A stretch of DNA of 64,000 nucleotides, from positions 20,257,432-20,321,431 of the forward strand of contig NC_092679.1 of the NCBI RefSeq assembly GCF_964355755.1, given 5' to 3'. This DNA is from Antedon mediterranea. Taxonomy: Eukaryota; Animalia; Echinodermata. Numbering within the stretch: position 1 is the first letter of the stretch; every line of letters starts with the position of its first letter. Shown here one piece after another: positions 1 to 63,927 of this stretch. The notes under the pieces are model-generated. The model was not told the origin of the DNA. It searched no databases and saw nothing but the letters and a program-made list of their open reading frames with translations. The position numbers and the translations under genes are program-made.

Positions 1-231
1 TAGGAACAAGATTAACACTATACCGAAAGAAACTTTTTGAAGCTCTAACTGATGTTGGCTCTGATAATTTTCATACTGTTATTAATTCTTACAAACTTAA
101 AGGCCGTAACTTTAAAAATATATGGGATGTTGTTTTCCACCTTGAGAAAGAGGAACTGTTTGATAATACCAAAGAAAAGTGTAAACGGTTTGCAAATCTA
201 CTAAGCAAAAAGTCAAAAAGCAAATTACTAG
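1..231 (+). CDS. Partial exon encoding the second death effector domain (DED) of a kinase-DED family paralog; 5' part is outside the window
   Basis: Frame from position 3 reads GTRLTLYRKKLFEALTDVGSDNF...NIWDVVFHLEKEELFDNTKEKCKRFANLLSKKSKSKLL, colinear with the DED exon at 28837-29350. It has the same phase-1 donor (cta g|gtaat). Confidence 0.8.
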
Positions 232-6703: not shown

Positions 6704-7003
6704 AGAGACTGTAACTAAATGTTTATTACTTATTAGGGTTACAGGGAGAGTTCCATGCAGCATTAAAAGGTCAATTAATGAGCCACCCAACTTAATTAAT
6801 TAAGTGCCGGTACTTAACAAATGTGCTCAAACTCAATAAGGGTTACAAATCTACAAGAGACTGTAACTAAATGTTTATTACTTATTAGGGTTACAGGGAG
6901 AGTTCCATGCAACATTAAAAGGTCAACTAATGAGCCACCCAACTTAATTAAGTACCGGTACTTAACAAATGTGCTCAAACTCAATAAGGGTTACAAATCT
7001 ACA
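6704..7003. repeat. ~150-bp tandem duplication near the palindrome centre (mirrored ~7380-7679)
   Basis: agagactgtaactaaatgtttattac...ggttacaaatctaca occurs at 6704 and again at 6856. Confidence 0.9.
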
Positions 7004-7158
7004 AAAGAGGATATTTTATTTTAAAACTAGGTTTAATAATTAAAAGGTTAATTACTTGAACTCTGAACATGGGAAAAAAGACTTGTGTCAATTGACACTT
7101 GAACTTGACCTCTATACAAGGACGAATAGACTGTGACAATTAACCATGACCTCTGGTC

Positions 7159-7224
7159 AGCCGTTTTATTGGGGGGGCTCTCAAATTTCGACGAAGTCGA
7201 AAACTGAAACCCCCATGCTTTTGG
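7159..7224. other. Central spacer of the palindrome; imperfect hairpin with a GAA triloop
   Basis: TTTCGAC-GAA-GTCGAAA (7186-7202), flanked by TCA/TGA and by G-run (7171-7177) / C-run (7210-7214) pairing. Confidence 0.85.
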
Positions 7225-10200: not shown

Positions 10201-11029
10201 AAAAGTTACAATATTTATAAAAACCAAAGTAGTTCTAAGAATATCTAATGGCAATAACCTTCACGTAAACAAATTTCAATTTTTGGCTCCGGTTGAAGGT
10301 CTTGTTTTCTGTTAAAATGTGTTAAGTGTCAAGAAATACAATTGGTAACCAAAACGTCTTTCTGTATTCGATAATTATGATTTCTTTGAGTTTTTTTTTG
10401 TTGCAATTATGATAAAAGTAATATAAAATAATACACAGATATCGGTCATTTCTCACGATTGAATTCATAATTTGATTTACAATACCACTTACAGTAAAAA
10501 TATCGTAGATCTACATGGTCTTTATTGTAATAATATTAATCACACTTTTTTAGTTAAATCATTGATACATGTACGAAAATATGTGCTATTATTAGTGTTA
10601 TTATAACGGGTTTTGTTTTTGTTTTTGTTTTGTTTTATCTACCAGTCCGTTTCAAACGTTACAAGCACCTATTACTCTTGAAATTACGATTAAAACGCTT
10701 TAAAGAAAAACTTACACACTTATTAAAAACATAAAAAATTGTATTTAACAATTAGAAATACATTACAAGTTACTTTTAAGAAATTATTCGTAAAGTTAAT
10801 CATTATCCACACAATGACAAACAATCACATGATTATTAACGATCAATGGAATTAGGCCTAGATCTAAGTGAATTAACTTCAATACAATAATACAATCATT
10901 TTTAGGAATATCATCACAAAAATAATTCAACTGGTACTACTATACTAAATGAGAACAGATCATGAACAGTTGATATTCTTGAGATCTGCAATCACTATTA
11001 AAGACTGTAATGTTTGCATAACATTTCTC

Positions 11030-12868
11030 TCATCTTTTAATATCTCTAAACGTGAGATTTATTCTTGGTAGCTTGATGGATTGATTTTTAGGCAGTGAAT
11101 GGTACCAGTACTCATTAGTGGGATAATTCATCATTAATAATGTACCGTGTTTAAGATCAACAGTTACTGGCTCAATGATTCTTTTGGGACTCTTACCTCG
11201 CGCATCACCATGTCGAAATCTAAACATACGTGTCTGCCCCAATGATACAGAGGCGATTGGACTAAACTGATTCATGTCTTTCTCATCATCTTTGTGTTCG
11301 CCAATGTAATCACTTCCAGTAGCATATCTATAGAGTAACGACAAAATACAATAGAAAATAAAATATTTTAAGATGAGACTAAAAAAACCCAATTATCCAT
11401 TAAAACAATCTTATCTAGCAAATTGCAGAAATCATCCAGTATGAATACTGATAGTGTTCATTCGTTTTAGAGGTAAACGATGGACCCTTTTAATCAATAA
11501 ATAAAATAAATAAATAAAATAATAAACAAGAATATTTACCGGTTGACCAAAACAAAATTGAAGTAATGTCCTGTAACCGATTTTAAAAGGTCGCGGAGAT
11601 CTTTCAGGAATGGTGGCCACGGTAAAGCTGGTACTGTATTGCCTGAATATTTGTAAGTTAAGCCCGAATCGCCAAACGAAACCTGCAGAGAGGAAACCAT
11701 ACAAAGAAAGTCATTTATTATTTGGTGAGATGTAAATGAACACGCCTAAATAAAATAATTTACAGTAAAAGAGTAAATTACACCTATAGCTACACAGCGG
11801 TAAATAAAGAAAAACAAAGGAAACGATATACAAGTAATTAACAAGTCATTAATACAAAACCACGGATAAAAACATAATGGAACTAACCTGTTTTCTAGAA
11901 ATATTAAACCACTTTCCGTACACTTTCACCTTTGCAAGATCACCGGTAAAATAGTCAATCTCTTCCTCACATCTTTTAAACAATGTATCGGCTGCTCCTT
12001 TATCAAGAAGTTGAAGGTAATCACAGTCTAAATTTTCCCCTATTATCTTTTGCACCGATAACTTATCAGGAGGTAGCAATTGATGTTCTGAATTGAATAA
12101 ACGTCCTCCATTACCGTTTTTGTCAACACCCGCTTCAACAGTAGCCGCATTATCATTACCAACCTCCTCAATCATCTTTTGTATTTCACCGTGTTTTTCA
12201 ATTATCTTGAACCACTGACTCTTTGGAAGGTTTACACCTTTTTTACCGGGTTTAAACTTGCCTCCTTCTTCTGACTGGTAATAGCGGCGAATACACACAA
12301 ATTGTTCTTCTTTCCAGTTACTAACTACCACATGAATTATGTCCGAAAGTGGGATTCTTACTGCCTCCACCATGTTAATGTCTCTTTGTAAGTCTTCCAG
12401 TGCCTGAATAATTAAATCAATATTGTTGAAAAGTTTTTGCCACAGCAGAACGGGTAAATTAATACCTAGAGGTCCAGGTTTGAAGGCACCATATTCTTCC
12501 GTTTGGTAATACTCTCTGAGACAAACATAAACATCGTCACCCCATCGTTGGGCCACTACATGGCGTTTTTCAGACAAGAAAATCCGATTCTTTGAAGTTA
12601 TGGAAATCTTTGGTACACCATCGGTCATTACGGCAAAATCTCGGGTGCTCATTCCTGAGGCTTTACTCAAACCTTTACACTCATCTGTTTGACCGTTAAA
12701 AGATTTTATAGAATCCATTATATTCGCTGATGTAGAAGCCATCGTTGGTAATTTTAAACTGCTACACTCGTCAGCTTGACCATTAGAACTCCCCATAAAT
12801 CTTTTCATAGTCCTACGGGCTTTCTCACCAATTGCTAATTTCGGAGTAGGTAAACAGTTGAAACTCAT
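11030..12868 (-). CDS. Second copy of the PC4-PC4-ALKBH2-like fusion; exons 12868-11888, 11682-11540, 11327-11030
   Basis: Mirror of 1516-3354. It differs by a V/F and an A/T substitution in the N-terminal region and by a synonymous change. Confidence 0.9.
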
Positions 12869-13027
12869 GTTTATAGACTGTAGAGAGTTACAGAGAGTAA
12901 AACGAACGATTACGCTTGAGTCAGGATATATATGCAGCTCAGTAGGGAAGTAGCCCAGTACAGTAATTAAAAAGATAATGATTGTTATTTCCGGTCAATC
13001 GTTTCCGTGACACGTGCGAAACACAAT

Positions 13028-13582
13028 TTAAATATCCTCGCACAACAGCTTAAAAATAGTCTCTGAATTAATCAAGGTATTGACAAGAAAATAAACGAAA
13101 TGTCTATACCGAGGCAATGAATATTCCCCGTGCATATTTAGTTCGTTGTAAACGGTATCGACTGAAACATACTTCTTATCCAGAACCTCCCGATAAAAAT
13201 AGTCAATCTGTTCTTCTAGAGACTTCATACAACAGAAATCATGATCTTTTTGACTGCTCCTGTCAAATTCACAACCATAACATGCCGCTTTACTTAAAAC
13301 CCAACACTTGGCTAACACTTGAGCAGCAAACAATTGTTTAACCAAACGCTCCATTTTCAACAAAAATTCTCTCTCCACCTCGTCCACGTACGTGAATATA
13401 CAACTTGTAGGCCTGTTATTCCTCTCGACTCCTTCATCTATACCGACGGGGATAACCTCTTCGGCCTCCGTGTAACGATCATCTATATCACTGCCTGGAA
13501 CAACAACAGTCTCCTCGTCATCGCTAATTATTATAACAGTATCTTCACAACTCCCTTGCGAAAAATATATACTTCCAGACAT
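13028..13582 (-). CDS. Second copy of the 184-aa Cys/His protein
   Basis: Identical translation to 802-1356. Confidence 0.7.
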   Translation of the reverse strand: MSGSIYFSQGSCEDTVIIISDDEETVVVPGSDIDDRYTEAEEVIPVGIDEGVERNNRPTSCIFTYVDEVEREFLLKMERLVKQLFAAQVLAKCWVLSKAACYGCEFDRSSQKDHDFCCMKSLEEQIDYFYREVLDKKYVSVDTVYNELNMHGEYSLPRYRHFVYFLVNTLINSETIFKLLCEDI

Positions 13583-14095
13583 AATGAAATACTGTAAAGA
13601 GATACTCTACGCAAAAATAGACAAAACAACTGGAGAATAGTACAACAATAACCGCTTCACTTTGTTTCACCGTCTTAAATCATAAATAAAGTAATGACGT
13701 CACTCACCACGTACCAGAACCTCGCGCCGAAAAAATAATAAATAAGAGACAAAGAAACACCTGGCGGAAATTACATAACTAGTACGAAACCAGGAAAAGA
13801 ACGACCTTCATTAGAAACACCTGGCGGAAATTACATAACTATTACAATAACAGGAAAAGAACGACCTTCATTAGAAACACCTGGCGGAAGTTACATAACT
13901 ATTACAATAACAGGAAATGAACGACCTTCATTAGAAACACCTGGCGGAAATTACGTAATCAGGAAATACACCAAGGTCATTTTCTGTCTGAAGTACCTCT
14001 TTTTCTACTAATTAATGTTATGGAAATTGTATAATTCTTATTTTATCAATGAATGATACTTAATACTAATTACATTTGTCGTATTTTTTCCACAG

Positions 14096-22800: not shown

Positions 22801-23081
22801 CAATCTCACGAACAAGCTATAGATGGGAAGGTAGAGGCTAACTGGGTAATAATGATATATAACATAACGCCTTAATAATAGGTAAGGTAGAGTAAGTAAG
22901 GTAATAAGGTAGTTAGACATTTAATCGTTGACGTAAAATACGGATGAATCGGGTTACGGGGAACCTTGCCCTAGCCAAGCATTACTGGGCCTAGGTAACA
23001 AAAAATGTTGAGTTTACAGGCTAGTAATTACACAAAGTCCCCAATTAATTAAAACTTATTGATACACTTTTGTAAATTTAG

Positions 23082-23214
23082 AAATTCAACCACGCCTTTA
23101 CCTCAACCAAACTTGAATGCACAATCTGAACCAGACCGGAGACTAAACGTGGAGCGGAATCAACCGTCACTTGATAATGAAACGGAAACAATTAGCAGTA
23201 AAAAAGAGTATAGA
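23082..23214 (+). CDS. Putative linker exon of the first kinase-DED paralog; locally duplicated at ~23644-23770
   Basis: aaatttag|a acceptor and tat aga|gtaaag donor mirror the exon at 29880-30030. It reads NSTTPLPQP...SLDNETETISSKKEYR. Segment ~22927-23198 is repeated at ~23486-23760. Confidence 0.5.
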
Positions 23215-24020
23215 GTAAAGAGTACAAACACAGTATGTATAGTATGCACTTTTCATGCATGTAAGGCACAGAGAAGTCAAAATCAGTCATTCATAATCAT
23301 TAATTTATTTTTTTAATATTGTGTTTTATGTTTTTTTTTTCAGCTCTAAATTCAAACAATAAGTATCCTTGCCTTATATTTATTTTTTTTGTGCTTAGAC
23401 TCAATGCAGATGGTTAGCTGGCTACCTAGGCGCAATTTGTGTAGCAGTGATACTCGCCGTTTTAATTCAAAAATGTTCTGAATGGTTGAGGTAAAATACG
23501 GATGAATCGAATTACAGGAAAACTCGCTTCATCCAAGCATTACTGAGCCTAGGTAACAAAACCAATGTTGAGTTTAGGTGCTTACAGGCTAGTAATTACA
23601 CAAAGTCTCCAATTGATTAAAACTTATCGATACACCTTTGTAGAAATTCAACCACGCCTTTACCTCAACCAAACTTGAATACACAATCTGAACCAGACCG
23701 GAGACCAAAGGTGGAGCGGAATGAACCGTCACTTGATAATGAAACGGAAACAATTAGCAGGGAAAAGAGAACATAATTATGTATATTTGTACAATTGTTA
23801 TCAAATATCTCTCGAAAACAACACGACACAATTTTATTATAACTAAACTAAGAAAATCTGGTTTAAAGGAACAATAATCAAAGTTATAAAAACAATGTAA
23901 AGTAAACTAATAGGTCATGTAAAGATAGGTAACACAATTTAAATGTGAAATAAGAATGCAACAAGGGTCACCTTTATCTTAATTATTATTTAATATTTTT
24001 ATTAATGATTTATTGTTCAA

Positions 24021-24695: not shown

Positions 24696-27675
24696 CTACT
24701 AAATGTATAAAGTAAACTATGCAATTTATTCCAAGTGAATCAAGTGAGGATTCTCAATAAATAAATAAAATATACAATATACAATATTTGATAAGACAGT
24801 GCAATTGAGAAAAGAGTATGTTGATAATGTGGTCAGTGCATGGTAATATTGGGCTTGGCCCATCTCATCTGACCAATTAAGATTAAGAGAATTAATGTGG
24901 TTTACTTGAAATCCATTAGCTAGAAAAGTGAAGGTAACCTGTCAATGTGAGGTTAAATAAAAAGATATATACAGGATGTATAAATAATCAAATTAAAAGT
25001 AAATGTTAAAATGCAAACCCCAAAGCACGTCTGGGAGAATAGAGTCTATGAAAACATTTCCTGATAGATACAGTATTATTGAGATGCATGTAGACGGTAA
25101 TCTGTAAAATCTTGTTCAATGAATAATGACTTTGTTCTTGCTGTCAGTCTAGGCCGGTATTATCATAATTCACTGTCAAATAATCAAAACTTTATTTTGG
25201 CTGTATTTACAATGACTCCCATTTGACTGTCAATCTAGGCCGATATTATAATACTGTCAGATAATCATTAAATTATGATCAAAACAGTCAATAATAAAGT
25301 TTTTGTTTGTAATAGGATACAATTTGTTCACACTTGAATGTCCCATTTATCACTTGTTGACATCTAGGCTTGATGAAGTGACCCCCAGACTTGACCTTAG
25401 CAATAAATAAACTAAAATGACAGAAATTTAGTCTGTTTAGTGGTCTAAAATTGGCTTTAATATATATTATTTAGACATCATTTTTATTTAATTTATTCAA
25501 TAAGCACATCATCTTTTACAGATTCAGTATTATGACATATCAAAGTATTAATTCTTGTTGTATTTTAGTTCAAATACAAAAGTTATTCACTTCCTTCAAA
25601 AAAAAATTATTATTCATTTATAAAAAGAGAAAAGAAACCATTGTCTGACAGACAATTTAAGTATTTTTTGCTTTAAATTACATTTTTTCTGGTAAATACT
25701 TTTTTGGTTAAAGTGAATAAGTATTTTGTGACAAAAAAAAAATTCAGGGGGGACAATATATCTTTAAAACTAAGAAATATTTCTTGTTTTTATTTTATGT
25801 CTTTGGCACATGTGGCCAAGAATTACCAATAGTAAATCATGAAGTTATAAACTCCATGATACCATACTGTACACCGCACCAAAGCCAACTGTGCACAAGC
25901 TTGCATGTTTCAGTCCATCACATGGGTGGGGGGCTGCAGGATACAGTCCAACAGTCGTACAAAACGTACTACAGTCGTACAAAACAAGAAATAAGGCCAT
26001 GGCCTAACTTGGCTTGGAGTCATTGGTCAACTAGGTCTACTTGACCTGGCTTGGCTAGCCTACTATTTTAGGCCTAGGCTTAGTCTAACTAGCTAGAGTA
26101 GGGCTAGCCTAGCTAGGCTAGGCCTAAAAAATCGGACAGAAAATGTGGAGTTATTTACCTGTATTTCACTAATACAAATCTAACAAGCAATTATAGTCAA
26201 CAAAATATTGATAATAAGTGACAAAGTATCATTTTAAAGTTAATATTGTGCCTTAAAAGGGGTTATTTGATTGTCAATTGGCTGTGTTTACAAAGGGCTG
26301 TCACATACGGGATGCTGACTGGAAGAAAGAGCATGCTGCAGGGATGACAGCACATGTTTTTCCACTGTATTGCATTTTTTTTCTAATATAATAATGCGTA
26401 TAGGTTATACTGTAGATATTAAAAAACCTTAGGCCTACTTAATATGAATGAATGCGCTGCTTGCACAGCATTTATTGTCAAATATATAAAATATTTAAAA
26501 TGTGAAGTTTGTACACAGACAAGGCTCTTAAAATTATAAAAAACATCAAAAAACACGATAATGAAAAAACACATCAAAAGAATAATATAATTCCTGTACG
26601 ATGTTTTCTAATTTAATTATACAAAAATAAAACAAGTTTTAACAAAATGTCCATGTCAAAGGAGAAAATAAATTGTTAAACGTATTGCAATTAAACTCCA
26701 GTCGTTCTGACGGTTTGACAGGCTCGTCCATTGTACTAAATAGGTAACATACCTTTTTCTTACAATTTTCAAAGTTAATAATTGCTCTATTGTTAGTCAA
26801 CTGAAACTGTTGTTAGTTGATATAATTAATGTTATTCTGTTACTATTTGCAGCATTTTTTTTAAAGTACCAGTTTATGTGTAATTGTTTATTTCATTCTG
26901 TAAAACTGGTTAATTAAGCAAGATTAGCTGATAAGAACGAAATGAACTAATATTAAATAGGCCAAAACCCCCCAACACATTTCTGTTTATAAGGGAATTA
27001 TACTAAATGGACAAAAAATGAATAAAATATAAAGTAGTATACCCAATGGACGGGCACCTTGATAAATTAAGTGCATACATGTTCTATAAATGGATATATA
27101 ATGTGTATATGAAACGTCATTTATATCCTGGATTTATAAAGCGCTTTATATTGTGAAATCTATATGTAAGCCCTGATAATACAGTAGAAACTGAGGGAAA
27201 CCAAAATCGAAGTATGGTGATACGCCCTGGCGGTAACTCTGGAATCTCTCTGTGAAAGGCTGGATACATAACCATTACACTCGCATTCACATGGTTGTGG
27301 TGAAATTAGCTTAATCACACACAGCATTAAGACAGAATGAAAAAAGTTGTAAATATTTTCCCGAAAAATCTTATGTAGACCTAGAGGAATTTTACAGTAG
27401 GTGGAGGTATGCACTCTCGGAGTGCCGTTTAGTTGTTATTATAAAAGCCTTTTACCCACTGTTGAATACTGTAGGTTATTGTTGCTAGTTGACTATTTAA
27501 AGCTGCATTATACACGAACGAGCACTTACAAAACACAAATCATACGAAGGCCATATCGTATTGTTACATGTTTTCTTTATGTTCATGGGAAATATTTCCA
27601 ATTTGTATTCAAACCGATCCATGCATGCTCTTCCGTGTTCGATATTGAATAGTTAATTTTGTACAGTAAGATAGC

Positions 27676-30600
27676 ATGGATACCAGCTTACGTGTATTTC
27701 GACCAAATGATATCAAAATCAAGAATACTCTGGGAGGTAATGATAAATTCAATGTTTTCATTGGAATTGTAAAAGATACTGGAAAGTTAGTAGTTGTGAA
27801 GAATGTTACGATTGGCGAACATAAACGGGAGTTAGATGTATTGAAGAATCTACGACACAAAAATGTTATCCGACTGTTGGGGACTATTGAGCAAGAACTG
27901 TCCACGTCAACGGGGTTAGTGCTTGAATATGCACCCAATGGTAGCCTATATGAGTTCTTACATAAGAAGCCTAGAACTCATTTCGATTACTTAGATTGGT
28001 GCAAACAGGCCGTAAGTTCGGTCGTGTATATTCACGATAAAGAAATATCGCATAGAGATATAAAATCTAAGAATTATTTAGTGTTTGGAGCTGTTATCAA
28101 GTTAACCGATTTCGGCTTGTCAAAATTCCTAAAGGACGGTAACTCGCGAAATGTACGCGGTACGATTCTCTGGATGTCTCCTGAAGTCCTGACGGAAGCT
28201 GAAGATGTGGATTATTTTAAATCAGATATATACTCCTTAGGAGTAGTCTTATGGGAATTGTATCACCAGAGAAAACCCTACCAACAAGTAAGTATTCTAA
28301 GCGTCCTGCAACATGTCATTCACAATAAAGGTCATCCAGAAATTGATGATTCATGTGACGTACGCTTGCGTGATGTGATGCTGAATTGCTGGAATTACCA
28401 ACCAGATCAAAGACCAAATGCAGAGCAGATTCTGACGTCACTTGATAACGTACCTGAAACATTGGTCAGAAGCAGTTCGAGGGAAAAAGAGAAACAAATA
28501 CATAGAGTACGGATAGTATATTGCTTCTTGTATTTTAATGTTTAATTCTAGTGTACGTCAACATCTTAACAGATTTAACATGCATTCTTTTAATTTCTGC
28601 CTCATCGATAACTATAAATATTAGGCAGATCCGTATACATGAGTTTGCTCAAACTCTCTATTCTTAATAGTTCAGTGTCGTCATACATTTAGTATATGTT
28701 TAGATTTTGAAATAGGTCTAATCATTAATACCTGCAATACAGTACAATTACATCATTTTTGTAAATACATCAATATAATTTTGTAATGGTAATATGCTCA
28801 TCTTTTTCCATTAATTGATGAATTTTATATTTGCAGGAAGAAGATCAGACCGCATTTCAACATTTGCTAGCAAACCTCAGCAAAGATTATGCTGGTAATA
28901 AATACCGTTGGTTAAGAATGCTTCTACATGATATTATACCAAGTGGAGATTTAGAATATAGCACTACAGGGCTTGACTTATTTAATAAACTTGTTGACAT
29001 CGGAAAGATTTCAATTACTGATGTCACCCTCTTGTCAGATGTTGCTGAAACCACCGAACAGACATCGGCAAAAGATCGTATTGCCGAATATAAAAGGACT
29101 GTACAATGCAGTGAAACATTAGGAACAAAATTAACATCATATCGAAGGGCACTTTTTGAAGCCCTCATGAATGTTGGGCATGATGATTTACTTAAGGTCA
29201 TTGGTTTCTATACACTTAAGCACCATGGCTTTGACAATATATGGGATGTTGTCTTTCACCTTGAGCAACAGGAACTATTAATTGATACCCAAGAAAAGTG
29301 TAAACGGTTTGCAGATCTTCTGAACAAAAAGACAGGGAGGATTTTACTAGGTAAATCTTGATAATTATAATTATACATTTCTGGTTATATATAATAATAC
29401 TATTAGAATCAAATTTGGTGGAAGAATTTTTCAATTCTGAATTTACTCGAATGTTAGAATAGATGTCATAATGTAAATGTCTTCTTTTCCCACAGCTGCT
29501 TCTAAGACCCTACTAAGGTAAGAACACTTTACCAAAACGGATAAAAATAAGATAACTCGAGATTTTAACATTTTTTCGGACGTAACGAATTGATTGATTT
29601 TTCTGATAATCATTAGGCATGATGGTCTGTTAGTATAAGTTATTCACAAAATTCAGGACGATAAACATACATGTAAAGCTAGTAGCCATAATATTAGGGT
29701 TTGACAAAATGCTTGTGGCGAATGAATATGATTTGATTTCAAAAGTTTAAAGTTAATTATAATTGCCCTTTGAAACTGGGATTTAATAAATAGTATGTAT
29801 TAGTTTACCAAGCCTGAAATCAACACATCATTTATTTAACAAGCTAATCGATGTCAGTGATAAAACTTTACAAATTTAGAGATGCAACCTGTATGCCTTC
29901 TCTTCAACAATCCGAAGTAACTTTACAACCTGTAACAGCTTCTTTTCTCGAACCAAATGCGAAGATAACGACTGAAACATTTGTCAGTAGTAGTGCCAGG
30001 GAGAAAAAGAAGCACTTACCAGTATACAGAGTAAGGATAGTATAAACCATCTTGCATTGTACGCTTAGTGAAGTAAAACATTTCTCAGAAGTAATGTTCT
30101 TTTAAATGAATAATGATAATAATAACTTGTTTGAAGGTTTGCATGGCGAAATCAAATGTTTGCGGTACACCACGTATATTAATTCTGAAAAGAACTGTTG
30201 AGAAAGTCTTTCTGCATTCTCACTCCTGAGGACGATCAAAGCATATTGATCGAAACGTCGAGAAACTCAACAGTTCTTTTCAGAACTACAGTAATATACG
30301 TGGTTTACCGCAAACTTTATATCAACGATAGTAGTAACAACAATAATATACTAATAATAGAAGATATCTTTATTTTTTTAGATCTATTTGTCAAAGACAC
30401 TGGTTATTGTTATCGCTATTGTTATTTTGATTGCAAGCGTATATGTACAATTACAAACCACCACAGCGCCTCCTAAAAATTGGCTAGCAGAAGCGATGAA
30501 ACGAATGAGGGAAAATCATCTTGAAAAAAACAAAGGAGGGACGGTAAGGCTAACATTTAGATGATTGTACTTCTGACTGGATTATTATTATTATTCATGG

Positions 30601-31018
30601 CGATTTCGTTCTTTGCATTGGTAATGAGTTCAGTTGGTGCCCAATAGTATAAGGCCTGTATTTAGCACCAATGTACAATTACGGCTTGTATTGCAGCTCT
30701 TCATACATTGCAATACAGCTGCGTATGTTGTTACAATTCTACTGTTACAAGTAAGCATACCAATGATTATTATTCGTTCAGGTGGTTTTTGTGAATAGTA
30801 TTTAAAGTTTATTTTTAATATCACAGGTGAAAGTATACGATCGGGAATTCAGCTTTAAATCTGGCCATGAATTGTGGAAGTATTACTCGACCGCTACTGA
30901 TGTTGTAACTGGGACCAAAGCGAAAGCCGGGGGATATCAGTCAATGGATGGGGCTAATCAGCACGCTGTCGAAAACCTTATCTATAAGCTCATGGCAAAA
31001 GGTTTGATAAAAAATTGA
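27676..31018 (+). CDS. TKL-type protein kinase - tandem DED - linker - TM - ALF-like protein, 623 aa; exons 27676-28506, 28837-29350, 29496-29517, 29880-30030, 30382-30543, 30827-31018
   Basis: Kinase motifs VVVK, HRDIKSKN, DFG, GTILWMSPE, SDIYSLG. DED pattern FQHLLANLS...GLDLFNKL...DVTLL, with a second repeat LTSYRRALFE. Hydrophobic LVIVIAIVILIASVYV. All introns are GT-AG and phase-compatible (1872 nt total). Kinase and DED exons are firm; linkage to the last two exons is inferred. Confidence 0.7.
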
Positions 31019-33770
31019 AACTGAATTTTCTATGAATTACAGATTAGACTATCTATAGATTGATTTTAGTGTAGTTCAATTGATAATATATCATAGTAAC
31101 TTTGAGCTATTTAATAATACAGGTATCGTCTTATAATGGAATTTGGATGATGTCATTTTGATGTATTTTGTGTTTTAAAACTTGCTACTATAAAACATTT
31201 ATACATATAATCCTAATTAAAATGTTTGATTGGGGAAGATAATCTTTTTGGAGACTAAAGCAATTTTTATATTAATTTTAAGTTTAAATGAATTATACAG
31301 TAACTAATTACTGTATCATAGGCCTTAATTTGTTTTTTCTTCGTTAAACTTTGTTTTATATGAATTATCATTTTCCTATGTAAGCTTTTCATTTCAATTA
31401 TGAGTTGTATTTTGAGTCTTTTTATACCGATTAAATAAATAAAAATAAAAAGCATGGAGGAAAGAGCAATGACAATCATAAAGGGAACCTAAAAATAAAC
31501 GTTTTTATACAAATTAAAAGTGATCGGAAAGGACATGTGGCTTCGTAGCCTCAGGGAGGGAAACTGACCTAACCTGACCCCCCACTTAAAAATCGTTCCC
31601 GCGCCGATGATTCGTAGTGTGCCTTGTTGAGTTTCTTTTTTAAGTATACCATGTCGTTCAAAATGTAAGTAGGCCTAACATGTTTTTCAATCAGTTATGT
31701 TGTTTTCGTGACATTATAGACATGTGTATTTTAATGTTTTAGATAAATTTGATAGTAGGCCTACAGTATTAAATTTGCAAACATTACTATATTTGAATAA
31801 ATAATGAATTGGTCTCCATAAAAGTGCTCTCTAATATAAGTGCTTACAACTTTCTAAAACCACTATATGGAACTTGTATTGAAGTATTTACATCAGTATA
31901 TTTTACGCGTTTTGTGACGTTTGTGTTTGGCCACGATACAGTTTATACAATATACAATGCATACACATACGATTCAATAGTGTATGTATACTATATTGTA
32001 GTTACACTAACACCATCTATTACAGTACATGGAAGGAAGTAGGACACCTACACATATTTTAGTTGAATTTTCTACGAAGTCTATATAGCCTAGGACAGGC
32101 CCGTATGCAGCATTTATAATGGGGGGTGCAAGCGAAGCGAGCAACAATGGCTGGGGGCCAGGGGGCCGCCAAGGGCCCCCAGTAATTTGCGTTATTTGAC
32201 GTTCTAAAGACTGATGTAAGACTCTCTGTTGTGGCTTGGGCTAGTTGAACGATGGACACCAGAACTTAACGCTTTCATGATGAGGCCAACTCAGCAGGGG
32301 TGGCGCCAGGATCTTCCCGACGCGGGGGCTACATTCCCCGACGAGGGGGCTATGCGAGCGAAGCGAGCATCACTAGGCTGAGGGCCAGGGGCCGCCAAGG
32401 GCCCCCGGTGGGGTCCAGGGGCGAAGCCCCCGGAAGCAACGCGTTCTAGCGTCATTTGAGGTCTTTTTAATCAGATTTAGGGTAGCCATTTTTTCCATTT
32501 TTTATAATGCATAAATAAAATACTGCGTGCAAAAAAACGATGCGCGATGACTCTTTCAATCCATATTTTTCAATTTAAAAAATAAAAGTTCAAAGAAAAT
32601 TTAGAAAAATAGAGTTGGAGGTCCCGGAAATTGGACTTATTATACTTCAAAACATGAAAAAAAATATATAAGTCCCTATCATGGGTTGTGACTGAGCTAA
32701 GAAATGTTTGAAAAATAGAGATGTTAGGTCCCGGAAAATGTACTTCTTGTTCTTCGAAATATGACCAGCTTTATTGTTGGGGCTGAGCTAAGAAAATGTT
32801 TAAAACTAGAGCTGCAGGTCTTCAAAAAATTGCATTTTATACTTTGGAAACATCAGGCCTAGAGGCTTAAAAAACGCAAGCGTAGACCTTTTTCATTCGG
32901 GGAAAAAAGTTTATTCCTCCCAGGTGTATGCATGCGTACCATCTGGACTTCCGAGTGGTGAGAAATTCATGACATACAGGATATTGAAAATGTAATAACT
33001 ATAGCTATAATGTAATGTACAAAGACTGGGCATTTAGCTTTTCAATGCAAAGCTGATATAATCTGTTTCAAGTGTCATTTACCAGGGCATACTAGGGACA
33101 GATGTAATGTTGAAGCGCATAATGTATCATCATCTGGTTCACCTGGTGCATACATTAATAAAGTTTGGGAATCGGTTTTTAACTTTGAAAACCCAAAAAA
33201 TAATAATGCTAACGATAACCACTACGGGAAAAGAGCTACGGTACAATCTGATACAGAAACACATGATGAAGTGTTTAGTATTGATGGAAGTAGTGAATCA
33301 TCAGATGATGAAAATGCGCAGAAAGAAACAAGTGTGATCACTATAGAACAACACACAAACCAAAATGAGCAGGAAGATGATGACAAAGAGGAGCAGAGAG
33401 AAGAGCAGGAAGTGGACGAAAGAGAGGAGGAGGAAGTTGAAGAAGGAGAGGAAATAGAAGTACCGGGAAGAAAGTACCAGAAAGCTGAAGAAAGAGAGGA
33501 GCAGGAAGTTGGGGAAAGAGAGGAGCATGAACAGAAGAAGGTAACTGACTACTTTGAAAAAAGTATGCAAAAAAGTAAAAGTGTTAGCACAAACAAGAAA
33601 GCAGCGAGAGATCTGAAGGAACAGTCCGGAAATGAAGGCAGGATAGAAGAAAAAACAAAGAGTATTGAAAAAAGAAGTTTAAGAAAGAGAAAAAAAAACA
33701 AGTAATTTAATCTTAATAATATGTATTCTAAATATTGTAATTTCCCTAGGAAGCTCTTTACTCTAATCTT

Positions 33771-36700
33771 ATGAATTTACATTGTATAACACTAAACGTT
33801 AGAGGAGCTAGAAATATAAATAAGCAACATAAGCTATTCCAATGGGTAAAAGATCAAAAAGCGGATATATGTCTGCTTCAGGAAACCCATCTAACAAATG
33901 AGATTATTAATAAATCAAACTTTGTTTGGGAAGGTGAAGCGATCCATAGTATAGGTAATTCACATAGTAGAGGAGTGTCGATACTATTACGAAAAGGTCT
34001 TGAATGCAAAATTGTTAAAAAGTTAACTGATATTGATGGAAGATATATATTTCTTAATTTAATGATAAATGAAAAGGAATTGGACATTATAAATATTTAT
34101 GCTCCTAATGAAAGCAAAAATAGAAGTGCATTCTTTAGGACCATACACAAATGTTACAATGACTTTGATGGAGGGAAGGGTAATTCTATCATTCTAGGTG
34201 GAGATCTGAATTGCATCATGAATAGTGACATTGACCAAAAAGGTAGCGCAAATAGGTCTGATAAATCTGTTTTTACGATTAAAAACCTAATGAAAAATTT
34301 AAATTTAAATGATATTTGGAGATCCAAAAACATGAATAAGCGACAATTTACGTGGCGTAAGAGATTTAACAACATTTTCCGTAGGCTGGATTACTGGTTA
34401 ATATCAGAAGATCTCTTTTTAAATGGAGATGTTTTAGCCTGTGACATTCGTCCAGCTATTCTCACAGATCACCAGGCGGTATCAATTAAAATAGATTTGC
34501 ATGAAAAAAAACGCGGTCCTGGTTTATGGATGTTCAACAATAGCTTTCTGAAAGATGAAACATTTACAAAATTAGTAATTAAAATAATTGATGTTTCAAT
34601 ACTAAAAAATAATAGAGAACCTGTAAGTGCAAGTTTGTTATGGGAGCTTGTAAAAACAAAAATAAAAGAATTTTCAATTGCATACGGAAAACAAAAAAAT
34701 AAAAACCAGAATAAAAAGAAAGAAAAATTACAAAAACAAATAAAAAACTTAAATGAAACTAGACATGTAACTCGTCACTTTGACGAGTTTGGTTATCCGC
34801 CGCGCCGCGCAAGTGGTGCAACATTAACATTAAGGGGATAGGTTGAGGACAAAAGGAAGTGTTCACGTTGGCATTATGACCTGAACTGAAGAATATGATA
34901 TGTTGTTATTGCTGAATTTTATTATTTAAATTCATATATAGTATACACAGTATAATCTGTATCTATCACATACAGTGACATACATAGAATAGGTGAAGTT
35001 ACGGGACCCGCTATTTATTGCAATTTTTTAACATGTTTACGGTTTTAAAATGAAACGCGAAGGTAGCAATTCCGAAAGGAAATTATCTCAGCAACAACGT
35101 ATTAGCGTGTAGAAGAAATTTGAATACGTGAAATATTGATGCGCGCTCTTTTAAATGTAATGAATTATGACGCAAAAGATGAAAATACGACCTTTTTTAT
35201 TTAACTGGCCATATGATGACGTCACAACATCCGATTGGCAACATTTTTACATAATTTCGTATCTACAATCCAATAGCTTCCAGAAAAAGTTTTAATCGTG
35301 ATTATCACATTTTATTCTTACGAGCTATAACAGATTAACATTTACTGTAAAGATGAAATTAATGCCACACGTGATTTAAATTTTTAGGCACGATGACGTC
35401 AAAAAAATTAAAATATTTTTAACTCATGCGAAAGATACTTGATTTACCTAGACAATATCAAAATCGGGGTGAAAATGGAAAACGGATAAGTGGAGATGCG
35501 CTCTATTCAATGTGATGAGCTATGACGAAAGATACAAAAATCCTAAATTTTATATTCGCATGGCCATACGATGACGTCATAATGTCCGGTTACCCATATT
35601 AATACCTGATCCGATATCTACAACTCATCTACTTCCAGAATATGTCATCCACAAAAATTTGACCGTCTAGTTTAGAAATTACGACTGTTTAAAAAAAGGC
35701 ATATTTTAAACGAATTTTTTAACCTTTTCATAAAAAACGCGCGCAAATTGTCCAATTCGACGTGCTCGTATGACGTATCTTTAAGTCGAAATTGTTTAAA
35801 ATTTGGTAAAATTACTAGAAAAGGCTGAAAAAACATAAATCACGCGAAAAAAATACGTTTTCAATGCTACGTGCGTACCGTACACGTAAAAATGTGCGCA
35901 CGCGTGGGAATTTTTGACATGCTCAAAACGACATGAAACGCGTAGAAAGTTGATTAGAAATTAATTTTGCGCATTTTGAAATTTTAAATGCGCGTGCGCG
36001 CGTAACTTTGTGTAAAATACGCAATTTTTTTTTCAACAGACAGTTAGCGCATGATATAAATTAAACTTTTGCAAAGTTTCACTTTAAAATGTTATTTGGT
36101 TTTCGACATATGTTAAATACGAGAAAATCGTTAAATCGCGCGTACGTCACGTTGCGCAATTGTAAACATCATGAAAAGCTTCGCTTGACGACGTTACGTG
36201 AATGTCAAAATGTTAACATAGTTAACAAAATGTTATGTTTGCAAGTTTTAGAGAAAAGCGTTACACAAAAATCATACAGAAAGAAAGAAGATGACAAAAA
36301 AGATGATGATTTCGTACAATCACAAGAGGTTATCCTGCAACTTCGTTGCGGATAACCAACAATTATGAATACTCAAAATTGTGATATAACCATTGAAAAT
36401 AAAATTGAAAACAAAAAAATAGAGCTTGAAAACATTTATAATGTAGAAGCAAAAGGCGCGCAAATTAGGTCCAGAGTAAAATGGATAGAGGAAGGCGAGC
36501 GGAATACAAAATACTTTCTTGGGTTAGAAAGATCCAAAAGTAAAAAGAAACACATAAAAAGTTTAATTACTAAAGATGGGAGCTTAGCAACGAGCCCAAT
36601 TGATATTTTAAAGGAACAAATACAACATTTCGAAGGTTTATACGCAAAAAATGTTATAAACCCTGGAAAAATTAATAAATACCTTTGTAATTCTATTATA

Positions 36701-39130
36701 AACAAGCTTTCAGAAATAGAAAAAGAAAATTGTGAAGGTTACGTCACTATTGATGAATGTAAAAAGGCCATTTCAATGATGGAAAAAAATAAAACACCTG
36801 GATCGGATGGTCTAAGTGTTGAATTTTATGTGTTCTTTTGGAATAATATTAAACATTTAATTTGCGATGCGTTAAATGAAAGTTATAATTCTCAGAATTA
36901 TCCTTTTCGCAAAAACGAGGTGTAATCACCCTTTTGTTCAAGGATGGAGAAAGAGAAAATTTGAATAATTGGCGTCCCATTACCCTCTTAAACACCGATT
37001 ACAAAATTCTTGCACATGTATTAAGTAACAGACTTAAAATGGTTATTAAATCAATAGTAAGTTCAGACCAAAAAGGTTATATAAAAGGCCGTTTCGCTGG
37101 TGAAAACATTCGGTTAATAGAAGACCTGCTTTATTATACAGAGTGTAATGATATCGAAGGGGCAATAATTACCGTAGATTTTAAGAAGGCTTTTGACTCT
37201 ATTAGTAGAGATTTTATGTTCAATGTTCTAGAAAAGTTTAACTTTGGAATGTTCTTTTGTAACTGGGTAAAAGTATTATACAATAACGTTGAATGTGTCA
37301 CAGTTAACAATGGTTGGGTTTCAAACAATTTTAAAATGAAAAGAGGTATTAGACAAGGTTGTCCTCTATCTGCTCTGTTATTCATTTTAGTGGTTGAAGT
37401 AATGGCATCTAGAATAAGAAACAAAGATGACTATAAGGGTATTAAACTTCCAAATAATGAAAATAACATAGAAGCTAGAATAAGCCAATTAGCCGATGAT
37501 ACTGTTTTGTATGTTGGTAATGACAAAAGTATTAAGTCAGCAGTCAGTGTAATTGAACGTTTTTGTGAAGTATCTGGAATGACACTAAATAAAAAAAACC
37601 CCAATGCTTTTTGGATTGGTAAATGGAAGAACAGAATAGATAGACCTTTAGAATTAAATTGGGTAAAACACCCGATCAAAATTTTAGGCATATATGTAGG
37701 GTATAATACAGAAGAATGTACCAGAAAAAACTGGGATGTTAAATTAATAGAGCTAGAAAAGACTTTAAAACAATGGAATGCTAGAAATCTCTCAATTTTT
37801 GGTAGAATAATAATCCTGAAAAGTCTTGCACTATCTAAATTAACATATGCTGCAAATATCACTGATGTTCCAAAATATGTATATACACAAGTTACAAATC
37901 TAATATATAATTTTATTTGGAACAATAAAAGGGAAAAGATAAAAAGAAAAACTCTAATTGGTGATGTTGAGATGGGAGGCATTAAAATGCCTGATTTTAC
38001 TCTTCATGTTAACGCACTCATGTGTGGCTGGTTAAAAAGAATTATGAATGATGAGGGTGCTAAATGGAAAAATATTCCAATGTATTATATTTAAAAAATA
38101 TGTGATGTTAATGTTTTACTTAATATGTCATGTTATAACATTATTGATGTTAATTCTGATAAAATTCCACTGTTTTACAAAAATATGATAAAAGCCTACA
38201 TAAATTATAACAGAATCTCTAAAAAAAAACCTGAAACTTATAACGATATAATGAATGAGCAACTGTGGGGAAACCACTACGTTAAACTAAAAAAAAAACG
38301 CTTTTCTACAAGCATTGGATTGACAGTGGCATTATCAGTATTAAAGACATTGTTAATAAGAACACTTTTTTAACATCGAACGAAATACTGGTGAAACTAC
38401 AATGTAAAACAAACTGGTTAAATGAGTATTTGTGCATTATTAAGGCAATACCAATTCAATGGAAACGTATTATTAAGGAGGTAGATATTTTCAATTGTGA
38501 TGATAATGATGAAGTAGTTGGGACTAAGTATGAGATTAATACTACCAAACTAATATACTCATGGTTTGTGAAAGAATATTTCATTATTCCAATGTCACAA
38601 CTAAAATGGGAAGAGTACTTCAATGATAACAACATTGATTGGAAAACTTCTTGGTTACGGAAAGTATGTAAAATGAAAGATAAGAAACTAGCACAATTCA
38701 ATTATAAGATGTTACATAGAATACTGCCTACCAACAAACGGCTGTATCAGTGGAAAGTTAAGGAAACACAAACGTGTGACAAATGTGGAGAAATTGAAAA
38801 TGAAAATCATTTGTTTTTTAGTTGTAGATTTATCAGAAATATTGGAGGAAAATGCTTAGTATCTTTGTAAGTTTAAATCACAATAATATATCATTTAAAC
38901 AATTAATACTAGGAACGGGAGATAAGCTAATAGATTATATTTATACTTTTGCAGCATTTACTATTTATAGAATAAAAATGTTATCTGCACTAAATAAGCC
39001 AGTGGGTAAATCTTTATGGAATTCATTTAAAAGCAATATGTTATATAACATTGAATGTGAAACATATAACAATAAAGAAACAAGTATAGAAAAATGGGTA
39101 GCTTTAAGAAATAAGATTATGATAATATAA
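33771..39130 (+). pseudogene. Tx1 ORF2 (APE-RT), disrupted by an insertion and frameshifts
   Basis: Fragments 33771-34758, 36360-36925, 36934-38094, 38125-38373, 38391-38870, 38852-39130. Confidence 0.9.
34759..36359 (-). mobile_element. Helentron-associated non-autonomous element (HINE/DINE-1-like) inserted in Tx1 ORF2
   Basis: Absent from copy 2, where aatgaaacaatt is intact. Inserted in an A/T run with no clear TSD. Subterminal IR GGTTATCCGC/GCGGATAACC, hairpin AACTCGTCA-CTT-TGACGAGTT and terminal CTAG. Confidence 0.75.
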
Positions 39131-41044
39131 ATTCTAACTTGATACGATTAACCGAAAAGGAATTACAGTGATACGGGTTACTGGTGGTACTGAGCTATTA
39201 TTGTTTTTTTTTATCATGTATATAAATATATTGTATAATCCGGGTTGTAAAATGAAAACAAACAAATGAAAATGTGTGAACTATTTTAAAACGGGATAGA
39301 CGATAATGATGATCCTGTCAAGTGTATAACAAAATATAAGAAAATTAATGAAAAAAGGAGTAATACAGAATTCATATATGTAAAAATGTTACTTATGAAC
39401 TGTAACGACATTTACAAGTTAAATAATACGATTTTATGTAATATGAGATAATATGAATGTGAATAAAAGTGGTGTTTGCGCCACAAAAGAGAAAAAAAAA
39501 ACTATAGCTATAATGTTGGCTAAGCGAAAATGGCATGTTTTTTTGTTTAGTAATGGATGAAAAATTTATTTTAGGTGCCCCACGGTACAGAAGGTTACTT
39601 GTAAATTAAAAAATTGGTGAACAAACGAACAATTAACATAATTCGTTTTTGCTGTAGTGTAGCGTACGTCGACGCAGTACACGACGTAACCGTCGGTAAA
39701 CTAACTTCGCCTGGAAAATAACACATTACACATTTTGGTCCCTGGATGAAACTTGATATCACGCGTCTCGACCCAACGTTGAACGATTCGTACAAAAGGG
39801 ATACCGCCAGACGTAAGGGATACCGTAAGACGCTGTCTGAGTTGGCCTTCCCTTGTTTAGGCGCCGTATTCGATAGTGTCTGTATTTCCAGACACGTCTT
39901 TACCGCCGGTTAAGTTGTCTGTATTTCTCCAGCAAACACTTTAATACCGCGTACCCTGTACATGAAGCGCTAAGCTATTGCTTGTCGTCACATGATCGAC
40001 TGCGCATGTTTTACATCGAGTTTGTAGTCAGTTCAGATTCCGTAATTTAATTACCGGTATTTTTTCATTTTATATTAGCATATTTTTGTTTGTATACCAT
40101 TGATAATGTAAATTTTGTATATATATAATGATATTGTCTTTAGTTAAACAAGACAAGAAAAAATACCAACCGAGGAAATAGTGGACCTTTTGGGACTTGG
40201 GGGGGGGGGGGAGTGCGTCTGCACCCAACGCACCCCTCCCCCCCCCCCCGGGATACGGGCCTGCTAGGAGAAGGAATAAGGAGGACACATCCACACCTAT
40301 TTTAGTGCGGTTTCCATAATACACTTTCTTGTGACGCAAATATGGTTGATTGCTGTACTGTGTTTTCATTGAGTGTTGACAAAGTGCGAGGCAGCGAGGC
40401 ACGCGAGGCAAGCGAGGCATGCCAAATATTTGTGCGAGGCATCATTTTATCATTTCCAAAAGTGCGAGGCATGCGAGGCATATAGTTTACAATTTCAAAA
40501 AGGTGCGAGGCATATCTTAACGTGCTATTATGCTATATTATAGGCCTAATAATCAATCGATACAAGCGTATCTAAATAGATTCGTGTATACACTCATCAT
40601 GTTGTTTATTTTTATGTAACGATTGTTTTTTCATTTAAGTCATATCGTGTCAAATTTTACTTTTACAAAAGTGCCCAAACTACGGTTCAAAAATCTGAAC
40701 GACAGTCTTCAACTTTCGATAAACAATAATTGTTATAGCGACACACTCATCAAATGACTGCAATGTTTGTTGGCATTTCGAGCGTGTTCACTCACATGTC
40801 TCTCGAACATAGCAGAGTGAAAATAATATTTTGTCACACCCCTGCGCCTAGATCCGGTAGACCCGAGAGATGGAAAATCCCTCTTTACTATTTAGCAGGT
40901 AGCGGAATGATTCAGCCCTCAGCTCAGAGGATTGTGGTGCATTCCCCTCCTATAGCACGTGGTTTCAGCAGCAACGCACAGACTTCTCTCTGAGCGGCGT
41001 GCCAAAGACATTTTTGACATTCCATTGTCTCTCTTTTACAAGAA

Positions 41045-42689
41045 ATGGATACAGCAAATGCTGAATTACTTATTAGAAATAATGATCTTGGATACCACAT
41101 TCCACAAGGTATGACTCCAAATGTTCCTCCATTATTTGGATGGGACAACAATGACTACAACAACTACGGCCATTTCTCGGGAACACGTCAAGTACATGAT
41201 ACAACAGGATACATTGCTCAGCCGGGACTACCAATTGCTAGCCATGAACTTCCAGAACAAACTAGTTTAAGTCACTCAAGAACAAGGCGTAGATCTATCA
41301 GGCCATTTGTTGATCAAATCAATAGCTGTATTATAAATAAAAAGACAAATCCATCTCGCTTTCCCAATGCTGTTAAACAGCTCACAACAATCAGTTTGGG
41401 TATTAAAGATACTGCAGATAAAACTGATATGGCTTGGAAGCTTACACGAATGGAGTTTTCTTTAAATAACAACATCGACCCATCACGCCAAAGTGTTCCT
41501 GGATGGAAAGGCTTCAATGCAAACATGCGTAGAGATACAGCTGAGATGGTACCCCATAAAATAGGTTACTGCCAAACCATCCATAAAGCTCCTGATTACA
41601 ATGTGATATACACCTTCCTCAAAAGATCAGTCGAGATGACAGACCAAATTATGGACATTCATCATGGAAAGGGTACATGCTCCGTTCCAGTTGTTGTAGA
41701 TATGGGAATTTGGACAAAAGCTTTTCAAGTTATCCTTAGCAAAGTTAATCAGGATCCTCAAATGGGCCGAATAGTATTGCATCAAGGTCCATTTCACACA
41801 GCAATGCGCTTCCTTGCATGTCCCGGATTTTTATTTGGAAGTGCTGGGTTACGTGACATTCTGATAGAGGCTCGCATTCTAACAGAGGGCTCAGTTGATA
41901 GGGTGTTGGAAGGAAAACAATGGGAACGAGGTTTCTATGCTCATTCACTAACAGCCGAAGCATTTAGTCGTCTTCGATTTATGGCATTTATTGACCAAGT
42001 AGAAGACAGAAGCTATATTGATCAAATGAAACCAGAGATTGAAAGTCTTCGTGAGAGCATGTCTTCTGATGCATTACAGAAGCTAATCGAATCAACCAAC
42101 TATCAACAAATGATGTCAATGTATGTTAACTACATTAAATCCCTTGGTGAAAATGGCAAGTTTTGGTCAATGTATATTGACCTAATTGACATACTATTGC
42201 GACATGTCAGAGCATCTCGTACAGGTGATTGGCAGCTAAGCCTCAATACCGAGTTAGAAATGTTACCTTGGTTCTTTGCTTGTGGAAGAACTGTCTATGC
42301 AAGACACAAACCAATTTACCTATTAACGATGCTAAATCTTGCAGACACGCATAAAGATGCTGAGGTAAATCTTCTAAACGGAATGCTTTTCACTGTTCAA
42401 AAAAGCACAAACAATCCATTTGGCAGAGTTCCTTCATGGCCATGGGTGGATTGTAGCAGGTTCCAGCATTGACATTGATTGGATGGATATACAACCAGCT
42501 CCATCAGTTGTCCTATCAATGACTTGCTGTGGATGTAAAGGTGAATGTACAACCAATAGGTGTCGGTGTTATAAAAGCAATTTACACTGCACTGGAATAT
42601 GTACCTGTTCTGAACTATGCATGAACATGCCCAAACTAGTCACAGAAAACGATGATGATGTTGAAACTGACGAAGATATTGGAAGATAG
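41045..42689 (+). pseudogene. Academ-like transposase remnant joined out of frame to a C-terminal CXC/Cys8 finger
   Basis: Motifs WDNND, PGWKGFN, VVVDMGIW, GPFH, GSAGLRDIL, YAH; jumps after NPFGRVP to HGW...CGCKGECTTNRCRCYKSNLHCTGICTC. Confidence 0.65.
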
Positions 42690-63554: not shown

Positions 63555-63927
63555 ATAACGAGTTTTGTTATTCAAGTTTGCAAAGCTACCTCGAATAGTG
63601 GACGCGGTACTTTCATCTGAAGTAATGAATGGATCAAAAGGGGTTGATCATTTCAAATCAGATGTATACTCTTTAGGAATAGTCTTATGGGAATTGTATC
63701 ACCAGAGGAAGCCCTATGAGGATCTGAATGTGCCAAGTATCATTCAGCACGTGGTTAACGATGGTCATCCAGTAATTGATGCTGAATGTGACGTACGGTT
63801 ACGTGATGTGATGCTAAAATGCTGGAATTACCAACCCGACCAGAGACCAAATGCGGAGCAGATTCTGACGTCACTAATTAACAAAACGAAAGATAGTTCA
63901 AAGGAAAAAGAGAAACATATACATAAA
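63555..63927 (+). pseudogene. Kinase C-lobe fragment paralogous to 27676-28506
   Basis: FKSDVYSLGIVLWELYHQRKPY...CWNYQPDQRPNAEQILTSL, with the same phase-0 donor (cat aaa|gtaagg). The DFG/activation-loop region is frameshifted and no N-lobe is seen. Confidence 0.75.

Follow-up and report, generated by a model that had tools for sequence, protein, structure and literature searches.

A candidate type II receptor carrying kinase, DED and cysteine-less ALF-like domains on one chain in the crinoid Antedon mediterranea

Within a 64,000-nucleotide (nt) stretch of the Antedon mediterranea genome (RefSeq assembly GCF_964355755.1, contig NC_092679.1, positions 20,257,432 to 20,321,431 of the forward strand; hereafter the window, whose coordinates are used throughout), a six-exon gene at 27676-31018 is predicted to encode a 623-residue protein, P0001 (labels from P0002 onward denote its relatives). 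In this chain a Ser/Thr kinase domain is followed by a death effector domain (DED), a likely second DED, a single hydrophobic helix and a cysteine-less C-terminal domain that appears related to the anti-lipopolysaccharide factors (ALFs). On balance, we favour the reading of P0001 as a single-chain type II innate-immune receptor.

A six-exon gene predicted to encode a single chain

Six plus-strand exons, all with GT-AG borders, splice phases of 0/1/2/0/0 and introns of 145-362 nt, join to form a single 623-amino-acid (aa) open reading frame (ORF) with one terminal stop and 1,872 open coding bases. This bears out the six phase-compatible exons proposed in an initial annotation of the locus. A search with exon 6 retrieved an uncharacterised, predicted RefSeq protein of Antedon mediterranea, XP_071963914.1, which is identical to this ORF at every position, and which is best taken as a second prediction of the same chain, not as proof of a transcript. 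The exons, with the evidence used to assign each, are as follows (K+R, lysine plus arginine).

Exon 1, 27676..28506, + strand: ATG, then the entire TKL/MLK-like Ser/Thr kinase domain, aa 14-256 (Pfam, PDB sequence search, motifs)
Exon 2, 28837..29350, + strand: DED1, aa 284-364, and likely second DED, ~aa 372-448 (Pfam, Foldseek, list of Met residues)
Exon 3, 29496..29517, + strand: 22-nt micro-exon that keeps the frame (skipping it breaks the frame)
Exon 4, 29880..30030, + strand: predicted cytosolic linker, 3' end a diverged copy of the kinase exon (local alignment, blastn)
Exon 5, 30382..30543, + strand: predicted signal-anchor helix, short Thr/Pro linker and first ALF-like helix (hydropathy, K+R count, ATG scan)
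Exon 6, 30827..31018, + strand: rest of the cysteine-less ALF-like domain, with its four-stranded sheet and C-terminal helix, up to the stop codon (AlphaFold2, fold searches)

In exon 2 the list of Met residues contains none upstream of aa 305, and the acceptor of exon 5 is itself an in-frame stop, with no in-frame Met ahead of the hydrophobic run. Since neither exon has a usable start codon, both DED1 and the C-terminal domain (the tail) need upstream exons. The initial annotation had reckoned with the possibility that exons 30382-31018 belong to a separate secreted-peptide gene, in which the hydrophobic stretch would be a signal peptide; this is ruled out by the lack of a start codon ahead of the helix, and the ALF-like domain stands at the C-terminus of a 623-aa chain, not behind a leader in a secreted single-domain protein. 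Among six exon-skipping combinations tried, 1-5-6 alone stays in frame, giving 394 aa. Because the helix and the first ALF helix share one exon in P0001, the anchor cannot be skipped without partial loss of the domain behind it.

The kinase domain proposed at the N-terminus is recognised (Pfam Pkinase/PK_Tyr_Ser-Thr, E 1e-45), has DLK, TAK1 and ZAK as its nearest single-domain PDB sequences, and keeps the catalytic residues K42, E52, HRD126-128, N133 and DFG145-147, with MSPE at the APE position. A Pfam scan of P0001 revealed no leucine zipper, RHIM, death domain or caspase domain.

Of the tandem DEDs in the original proposal, the first (aa 284-364) stands, with a Pfam DED match above cut-off (E 3.7e-09), while the second proved weaker than had been implied. 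Taken alone, aa ~372-448 has no Pfam match, hhalign gave DED1 and DED2 a probability of 0.4%, and the profile of alignment A4 matched no DED structure. A model of the DED region (pLDDT 53) had caspase-8/cFLIP tandem-DED entries as its ten best Foldseek rows (E 0.07-0.26, 151-184 columns), weak fold-search support that points to a likely second DED at ~aa 372-448. Pfam scans of nine Antedon DED models found no caspase or pseudo-caspase domain.

P0001 has one hydrophobic segment, the 16-residue helix noted earlier at aa 513-528 (30400-30447; 19-residue Kyte-Doolittle maximum 2.75, against a helix cut-off of 1.6). It lacks an N-terminal signal, this single helix is internal, and five K+R precede it while one follows. 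The same N-side excess of K+R is found in five of the six helix-bearing family models. MAM, an extracellular module, occupies the C-terminus of three paralogs (P0004, P0007 and P0008), and the family stalks are 40-62% Thr/Ser/Pro. Judged from hydropathy, K+R counts and the paralog domains, the topology is predicted to be type II, N-in/C-out, in keeping with the original proposal.

The tail resembles anti-lipopolysaccharide factors

The tail contains the peptides first quoted for it and measures 89 residues (aa 535-623), not the ~95 then suggested. An AlphaFold2 model built from a 4-row alignment (best pLDDT 91) consists of a helix (H6-16), four strands and a second helix (H66-83). When this fold was compared by Foldseek, as had been proposed to separate an ALF from a dsRBD-like fold, shrimp ALFPm3 (2JOB) ranked first (E 0.034, TMq 0.66, 88 columns). 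VIA-align likewise placed 2JOB first among 48,161 chains (Z 8.7, root-mean-square deviation 3.5, 83 aligned), and in the ESM Atlas clusters of PF11630, the ALF family, came top both in the feature comparison (0.80, to be read only as a lead) and in the structural one (TM 0.76, 85 residues).

At the level of sequence, a HMMER search with three Antedon tails against 1.84 billion representatives yielded 40 matches, comprising the 3 queries, 3 giants and 34 others. The giant proteins (P0019, P0021 and P0029) were dropped as false positives, two of the three being bacterial Ig-repeat proteins (P0021 was unscanned). PF11630 was matched at E <=0.1 by 18 of 36 scanned relatives and above cut-off by 13, of which 12 are multi-repeat, and most of those above cut-off reach it by summed repeats. 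A 28-row tail profile matched a single PDB sequence within a limit of E 10, namely 2JOB (E 0.84). Direct phmmer and a 3-row profile gave chance-level PDB matches only, a word-index search found no short tail relatives among 6 candidates, and exon 6 alone had no match in the ESM Atlas. Among ten matches looked up, named sources were Anneissia japonica, Branchiostoma belcheri and the coral Desmophyllum pertusum. Each of these routes is modest; they agree, however, and on the models and profiles the P0001 tail is related to ALF, which outranks dsRBD in the ESM Atlas, Foldseek, VIA-align, the profile search and the Pfam counts. The initial annotation's ALF comparison is thereby upheld, and a fold unrelated to ALF is disfavoured.

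As that annotation observed, the two ALF cysteines are absent: the aligned positions are F568 and D585 in the 28-row profile alignment. Across 78 aligned domains (near-copies included) none has a Cys at either position, and an Asp is kept in 76. The tail is therefore, judged by its residues, a non-canonical ALF. Of the seven residues proposed to bind lipid A, it keeps one, K591 (residue list in PMC3701609). Its hairpin has a net charge of 0, whereas the hairpins of three paralogs range from -1 to -2 and that of Anneissia reaches +4. According to the same source, Group D shrimp ALFs, which keep two of the seven, bind lipopolysaccharide (LPS) 20-fold more weakly. With the Cys pair replaced, one of the seven residues kept and the hairpin uncharged, LPS seems a doubtful ligand for the P0001 copy.

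Two further layouts were noted among the tail relatives. P0010, P0011, P0013, P0016 and P0017, which may, at a guess, be protist proteins, have a short N-terminus and one hydrophobic helix followed by 4-5 cysteine-less ALF-like repeats, and these repeats cluster in a tree (SH-aLRT 93). P0045 and P0047 combine a ~100-aa helical N-terminal domain with an ALF-like domain and have no membrane helix, giving them the look of a two-domain adaptor; Pfam and PDB searches did not support a death fold at their N-terminus.

Ectodomains exchanged around a common DED exon

A search with the DED exon identified nine Antedon models representing eight genes, P0005 and P0006 being isoforms (TM, transmembrane helix).

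P0001: kinase-DEDs-TM-ALF-like
P0004: 853 aa, kinase-DED-DED-TM-mucin-like stalk-MAM, a second candidate inverted receptor kinase
P0007, P0008: DEDs-TM-MAM (P0007 helix 1.57, just below the 1.6 cut)
P0002, P0006: DEDs-TM-ALF-like
P0005: P0006 isoform minus exactly the 37-aa membrane segment
P0003: partial kinase-DEDs-ALF-like, helix absent
P0009: DEDs with repeats

The kinase-DED junction of P0001 recurs in P0004, and in the DED tree these two, one ending in an ALF-like domain and the other in MAM, are sisters (100/99). Since a single MAM clade is also rejected (p-AU 0.009, with P0009 left out), the ectodomains must have been exchanged. These sequence comparisons show that the kinase, the membrane exon and an ectodomain of either ALF-like or MAM type have been shuffled around a common DED exon, and this modular family with swappable ectodomains had been missed in the initial annotation. 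A Nei-Gojobori value of 0.62 (76 codons, DED2 against window 3-230) was not used, the latter being possibly a broken copy.

Exon 4 preserves a trace of this history. From the 3' end of the exon through the donor into the start of the next intron, the sequence is a diverged copy of the stretch that closes the kinase exon (local alignment score 128, where 500 shuffles reached 84 at most; blastn 73% across 100 nt). This implies that a kinase exon once preceded the membrane exon. In Anneissia japonica, XP_033124901.1 has the arrangement kinase-stalk-ALF-like, with 50% identity in both parts and neither DED nor helix in the model. The family is likely to have arisen from a kinase-(TM)-ALF-like gene, as still seen in Anneissia, that gained a recombined DED exon, leaving exon 4 as a kinase-exon stub.

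Contigs of a probable RNA run

Sequence data came from X1, a single run from another sample, guessed to be RNA, whose silence is no evidence. Its contigs cover exons and hardly any intron, with pieces that start or stop at the borders of exon 2, and one paralog-like contig joins 30543 to 30827 over a GT..AG gap, as expected for splicing of intron 5. Coding contigs are 80-96% alike to the locus, and their loose ends match P0002 and P0006. Since they are paralog-like, they show splicing in the family and not that of the P0001 copy. Only in the 3' flank does similarity reach 99%, over a piece of 188 nt with a depth of 2.7. Summed contig depth is higher for the DED exon than for introns, which is no measure of copy number.

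Surroundings of the gene

Three pieces of paralogous coding sequence were found elsewhere in the window.

3..231, + strand: last part of a paralogous DED exon, donor included (tblastn 61.5%, translation)
23080..23210, + strand: orphan exon-4 homologue (second copy at ~23645-23770)
63610..63927, + strand: 5'-truncated paralogous kinase exon, C-lobe only, same donor context (tblastn 65.8% to the P0001 gene, 79.3% to P0003)

The second of these is, by sequence, likely what is left of a broken upstream paralog, for which no membrane or MAM exon was found.

The remainder is rich in repeats. A near-perfect 13.6-kb palindrome (375-14009, 66-nt centre) begins ~140 nt past the paralogous DED exon; in each arm there are 60-bp subterminal repeats, a 192-aa ORF that contains Cys (778-1356) and an ORF with tandem PC4 domains (1390-2535, Pfam E 1.5e-23), and the whole is either a fold-back mobile element or an assembly artefact. 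A second, older palindrome lies at 57199-60563 (85% over 3.5 kb). Two opposite copies of a LINE-type element, ~99% alike, occupy 33016-39500 and 48228-52669 and contain endonuclease and reverse-transcriptase-like ORFs. High-copy short repeats occur in intron 4 (30127-30326) and upstream of the gene (27236-27420), and two long Pfam-negative ORFs, 41018-42472 (484 aa) and 61619-62770 (383 aa), are probably transposon-derived.

Proposed function and alternatives

We infer, rather than observe, the topology, receptor role, clustering and partners of P0001. In the mechanism that we propose, a microbial or altered-self surface ligand, probably not through classical lipid A binding, would bind the candidate ectodomain and cause chains to cluster. 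FADD, caspase-8-like proteins or other DED partners could then be drawn to the cytosolic DEDs, an established behaviour of DEDs (PMC8195603), and the kinase might act by trans-phosphorylation or as a scaffold, with an MLK/TAK1-type output suggested by its closest PDB sequences.

Several observations weigh against this receptor reading. The LPS site is not kept (Cys pair replaced, one of seven residues, hairpin charge 0). For the tail, three of the five AlphaFold models are poor and two good, the best Foldseek E reaches only 0.034, dsRBDs come next after 2JOB in VIA-align (best Z 7.1), and the three Antedon tails themselves, that of P0001 included, have no Pfam match. The Gly loop of the kinase is degenerate (LGGNDKFNV vs GxGxxG), as it also is in P0004 and P0012, and the Anneissia kinase has Thr in place of the catalytic-loop Asn; as catalytic residues are present but the loop is degenerate, P0001 may possibly have a weak or scaffold kinase. 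Besides P0001, three of five tail-bearing crinoid models (P0003, P0005 and P0012) have no helix, and many tail relatives are small and lack a signal peptide, as would fit a cytosolic role. X1 contains no P0001 transcript, all its coding contigs being paralog-like; the junction 30030/30382 is not seen there, and the membrane segment 30382-30428 is without cover, which is not evidence in itself. Finally, every member of the family is a computational prediction, from a tandem array rich in repeats.

More tentatively, a wider picture can be drawn, in which crinoids would possess inverted receptor kinases with a constant DED core and swappable ectodomains, and in which the ALF fold, so far regarded as an arthropod antimicrobial peptide, would be an ancient cysteine-less pattern-recognition module found across animals (crinoids, amphioxus, corals) and used as ectodomain, cytosolic sensor or tandem surface lectin, with skipping of the membrane exon toggling a single gene between surveillance at the surface and in the cytosol.

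Of the alternatives, a cytosolic role for the cysteine-less ALF-like domain survives best, and we consider it unlikely. The domain would then be a cytosolic sensor or homotypic adaptor, the membrane-less forms would be the working ones (kinase-ALF resembling the kinase-CARD of RIPK2, and DED-DED-ALF resembling FADD), and the anchored form would be tethered or a decoy. P0005 lacks precisely the 37-aa membrane segment, P0003 and Anneissia P0012 are helix-less, stand-alone relatives of 90-102 aa have no signal-like N-terminus, and the absence of Cys from both ALF positions in all 78 aligned domains fits such a location. Yet the P0001 anchor shares its exon with the first ALF helix and cannot be skipped alone, paralogs carry MAM and Thr/Pro stalks at the slot of the tail, and P0010, P0011, P0013, P0016 and P0017, with an N-terminal helix before 4-5 tandem domains, have a layout suited to surface display.

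We also find it quite improbable that the six exons were joined by annotation read-through, or form a recent, dead product of shuffling in an unstable tandem array, with the paralogs (DED-DED-TM-ALF-like and kinase-DED-DED-TM-MAM) as the expressed genes. Pieces of broken paralogs flank the gene (3-231, 23080-23210, 63610-63927), X1 has contigs from paralogs and not the coding exons of P0001, and exon 1 would join exon 5 in frame too (394 aa). Against this, the 1,872 coding bases are open between canonical sites, the introns measure 145-362 nt and the micro-exon keeps the frame; the same kinase-DED junction is found in P0004, kinase and ALF-like domain are also combined in Anneissia, and X1, as a single run of a different sample, carries no weight by its silence.

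That the tail binds nucleic acid in the manner of a dsRBD, which would make P0001 a PKR-like or endosomal sensor of RNA, is highly improbable. dsRBDs do take most rows below rank 1 in both fold searches (TMq <=0.57; Z <=7.1), but the tail model has four strands after its first helix, as in ALF, whereas the dsRBD sheet is three-stranded, and the Pfam dsrm family matches none of the 28 profile members, compared with 11 for ALF, and 1 of the 36 scanned relatives weakly. In addition, the last helix begins with MDGAN, whereas dsRBDs have a basic KKxAK motif at this point. We reject a dsRBD identity as second best after ALF.

A non-immune, or allorecognition or adhesion, receptor with death-fold signalling (in development, regeneration or self-recognition) would agree with the loss of the LPS site and with MAM domains, which are adhesion modules in many receptors. 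We give it very little credence, since the DED, ALF kinship, lineage-specific tandem expansion and shuffling are typical of invertebrate immune families (PMC2575513 and PMC8195603).

Comparison with known systems

If the receptor reading is true, a kinase-first receptor with built-in DEDs and interchangeable outer domains would represent a new layout for immune signalling, in crinoids, the least studied class of echinoderms. To our knowledge, almost all animal receptor kinases place the ectodomain first, and we know of no established direct LPS receptor of echinoderms, which would gain a candidate sensor family. Functional parallels are found in Drosophila PGRP-LC/PGRP-LE and vertebrate Dectin-1, which offer type II proteins with a C-terminal ligand domain outside, signalling toward FADD and a DED caspase, and splice forms with and without the anchor. 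They differ in signalling through adaptors and in containing neither an enzyme nor a death fold, whereas P0001 holds DEDs and kinase within the chain. The bacterial PASTA kinases PknB and StkP also have an N-terminal Ser/Thr kinase, one helix and an outer C-terminal domain that binds a component of the microbial wall; being bacterial, without DEDs and with an unrelated ectodomain, they provide an analogy only. Among intracellular proteins, MLK-group TKL kinases (DLK/MAP3K12, ZAK/MAP3K20, TAK1) are the closest single-domain PDB kinases to P0001, and its DED region resembles, in the weak fold-search matches, the tandem DEDs of caspase-8/cFLIP. These kinases and the RIPK1/caspase-8/cFLIP group are soluble, with no anchor or ectodomain.

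The 'shortcut' receptors of amphioxus and oyster (TNFR-caspase; Cys-rich-TM-DED-TRADD-N) share with the P0001 family lineage-specific expansions and shuffling that fuses an ectodomain to death-pathway domains (PMC2575513 and PMC8195603). These hybrids are type I, with the ectodomain first; in the P0001 family the order is reversed, and a variable ectodomain is combined with a DED core that stays constant. Neither the kinase-DED-TM-ALF-like layout nor an echinoderm ALF-like domain is described in the full-text literature searched, which mostly lies outside subscription papers, or in the available text of PMC6213531, PMC11767717, PMC10672452, PMC2575513, PMC3701609, PMC12220480, PMC5437397, PMC13673367, PMC8195603 and PMC11359984; entries of this kind could be present in supplementary domain tables, the architecture lists of PMC8195603 among them. 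In sum, each component is already known, and invertebrate deuterostomes often have hybrid receptors; the predicted type II DED family of crinoids is undescribed in the texts searched.

The tail itself shares with ALF/scygonadin (PF11630; ALFPm3, 2JOB) the predicted fold of helix, four-strand sheet and helix, in a collinear alignment over 71 positions. In ALF genes the leader and first helix lie in one exon (PMC6213531), as do the helix and first ALF helix of P0001. The P0001 tail differs in having an internal anchor instead of a signal peptide, no disulfide, and a fusion to signalling domains; its hairpin is five residues shorter and uncharged, and the third and last ALF helix is missing. Its host is a deuterostome, whereas ALFs are called exclusive to chelicerates and crustaceans in PMC6213531 and PMC5437397; a table of PMC12220480 includes one rotifer gene bearing a PF11630 tag. 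With cysteine-less relatives in crinoids, amphioxus and a coral, the ALF fold would extend beyond arthropods, and its origin and ancestral ligand become testable with a 90-residue domain.

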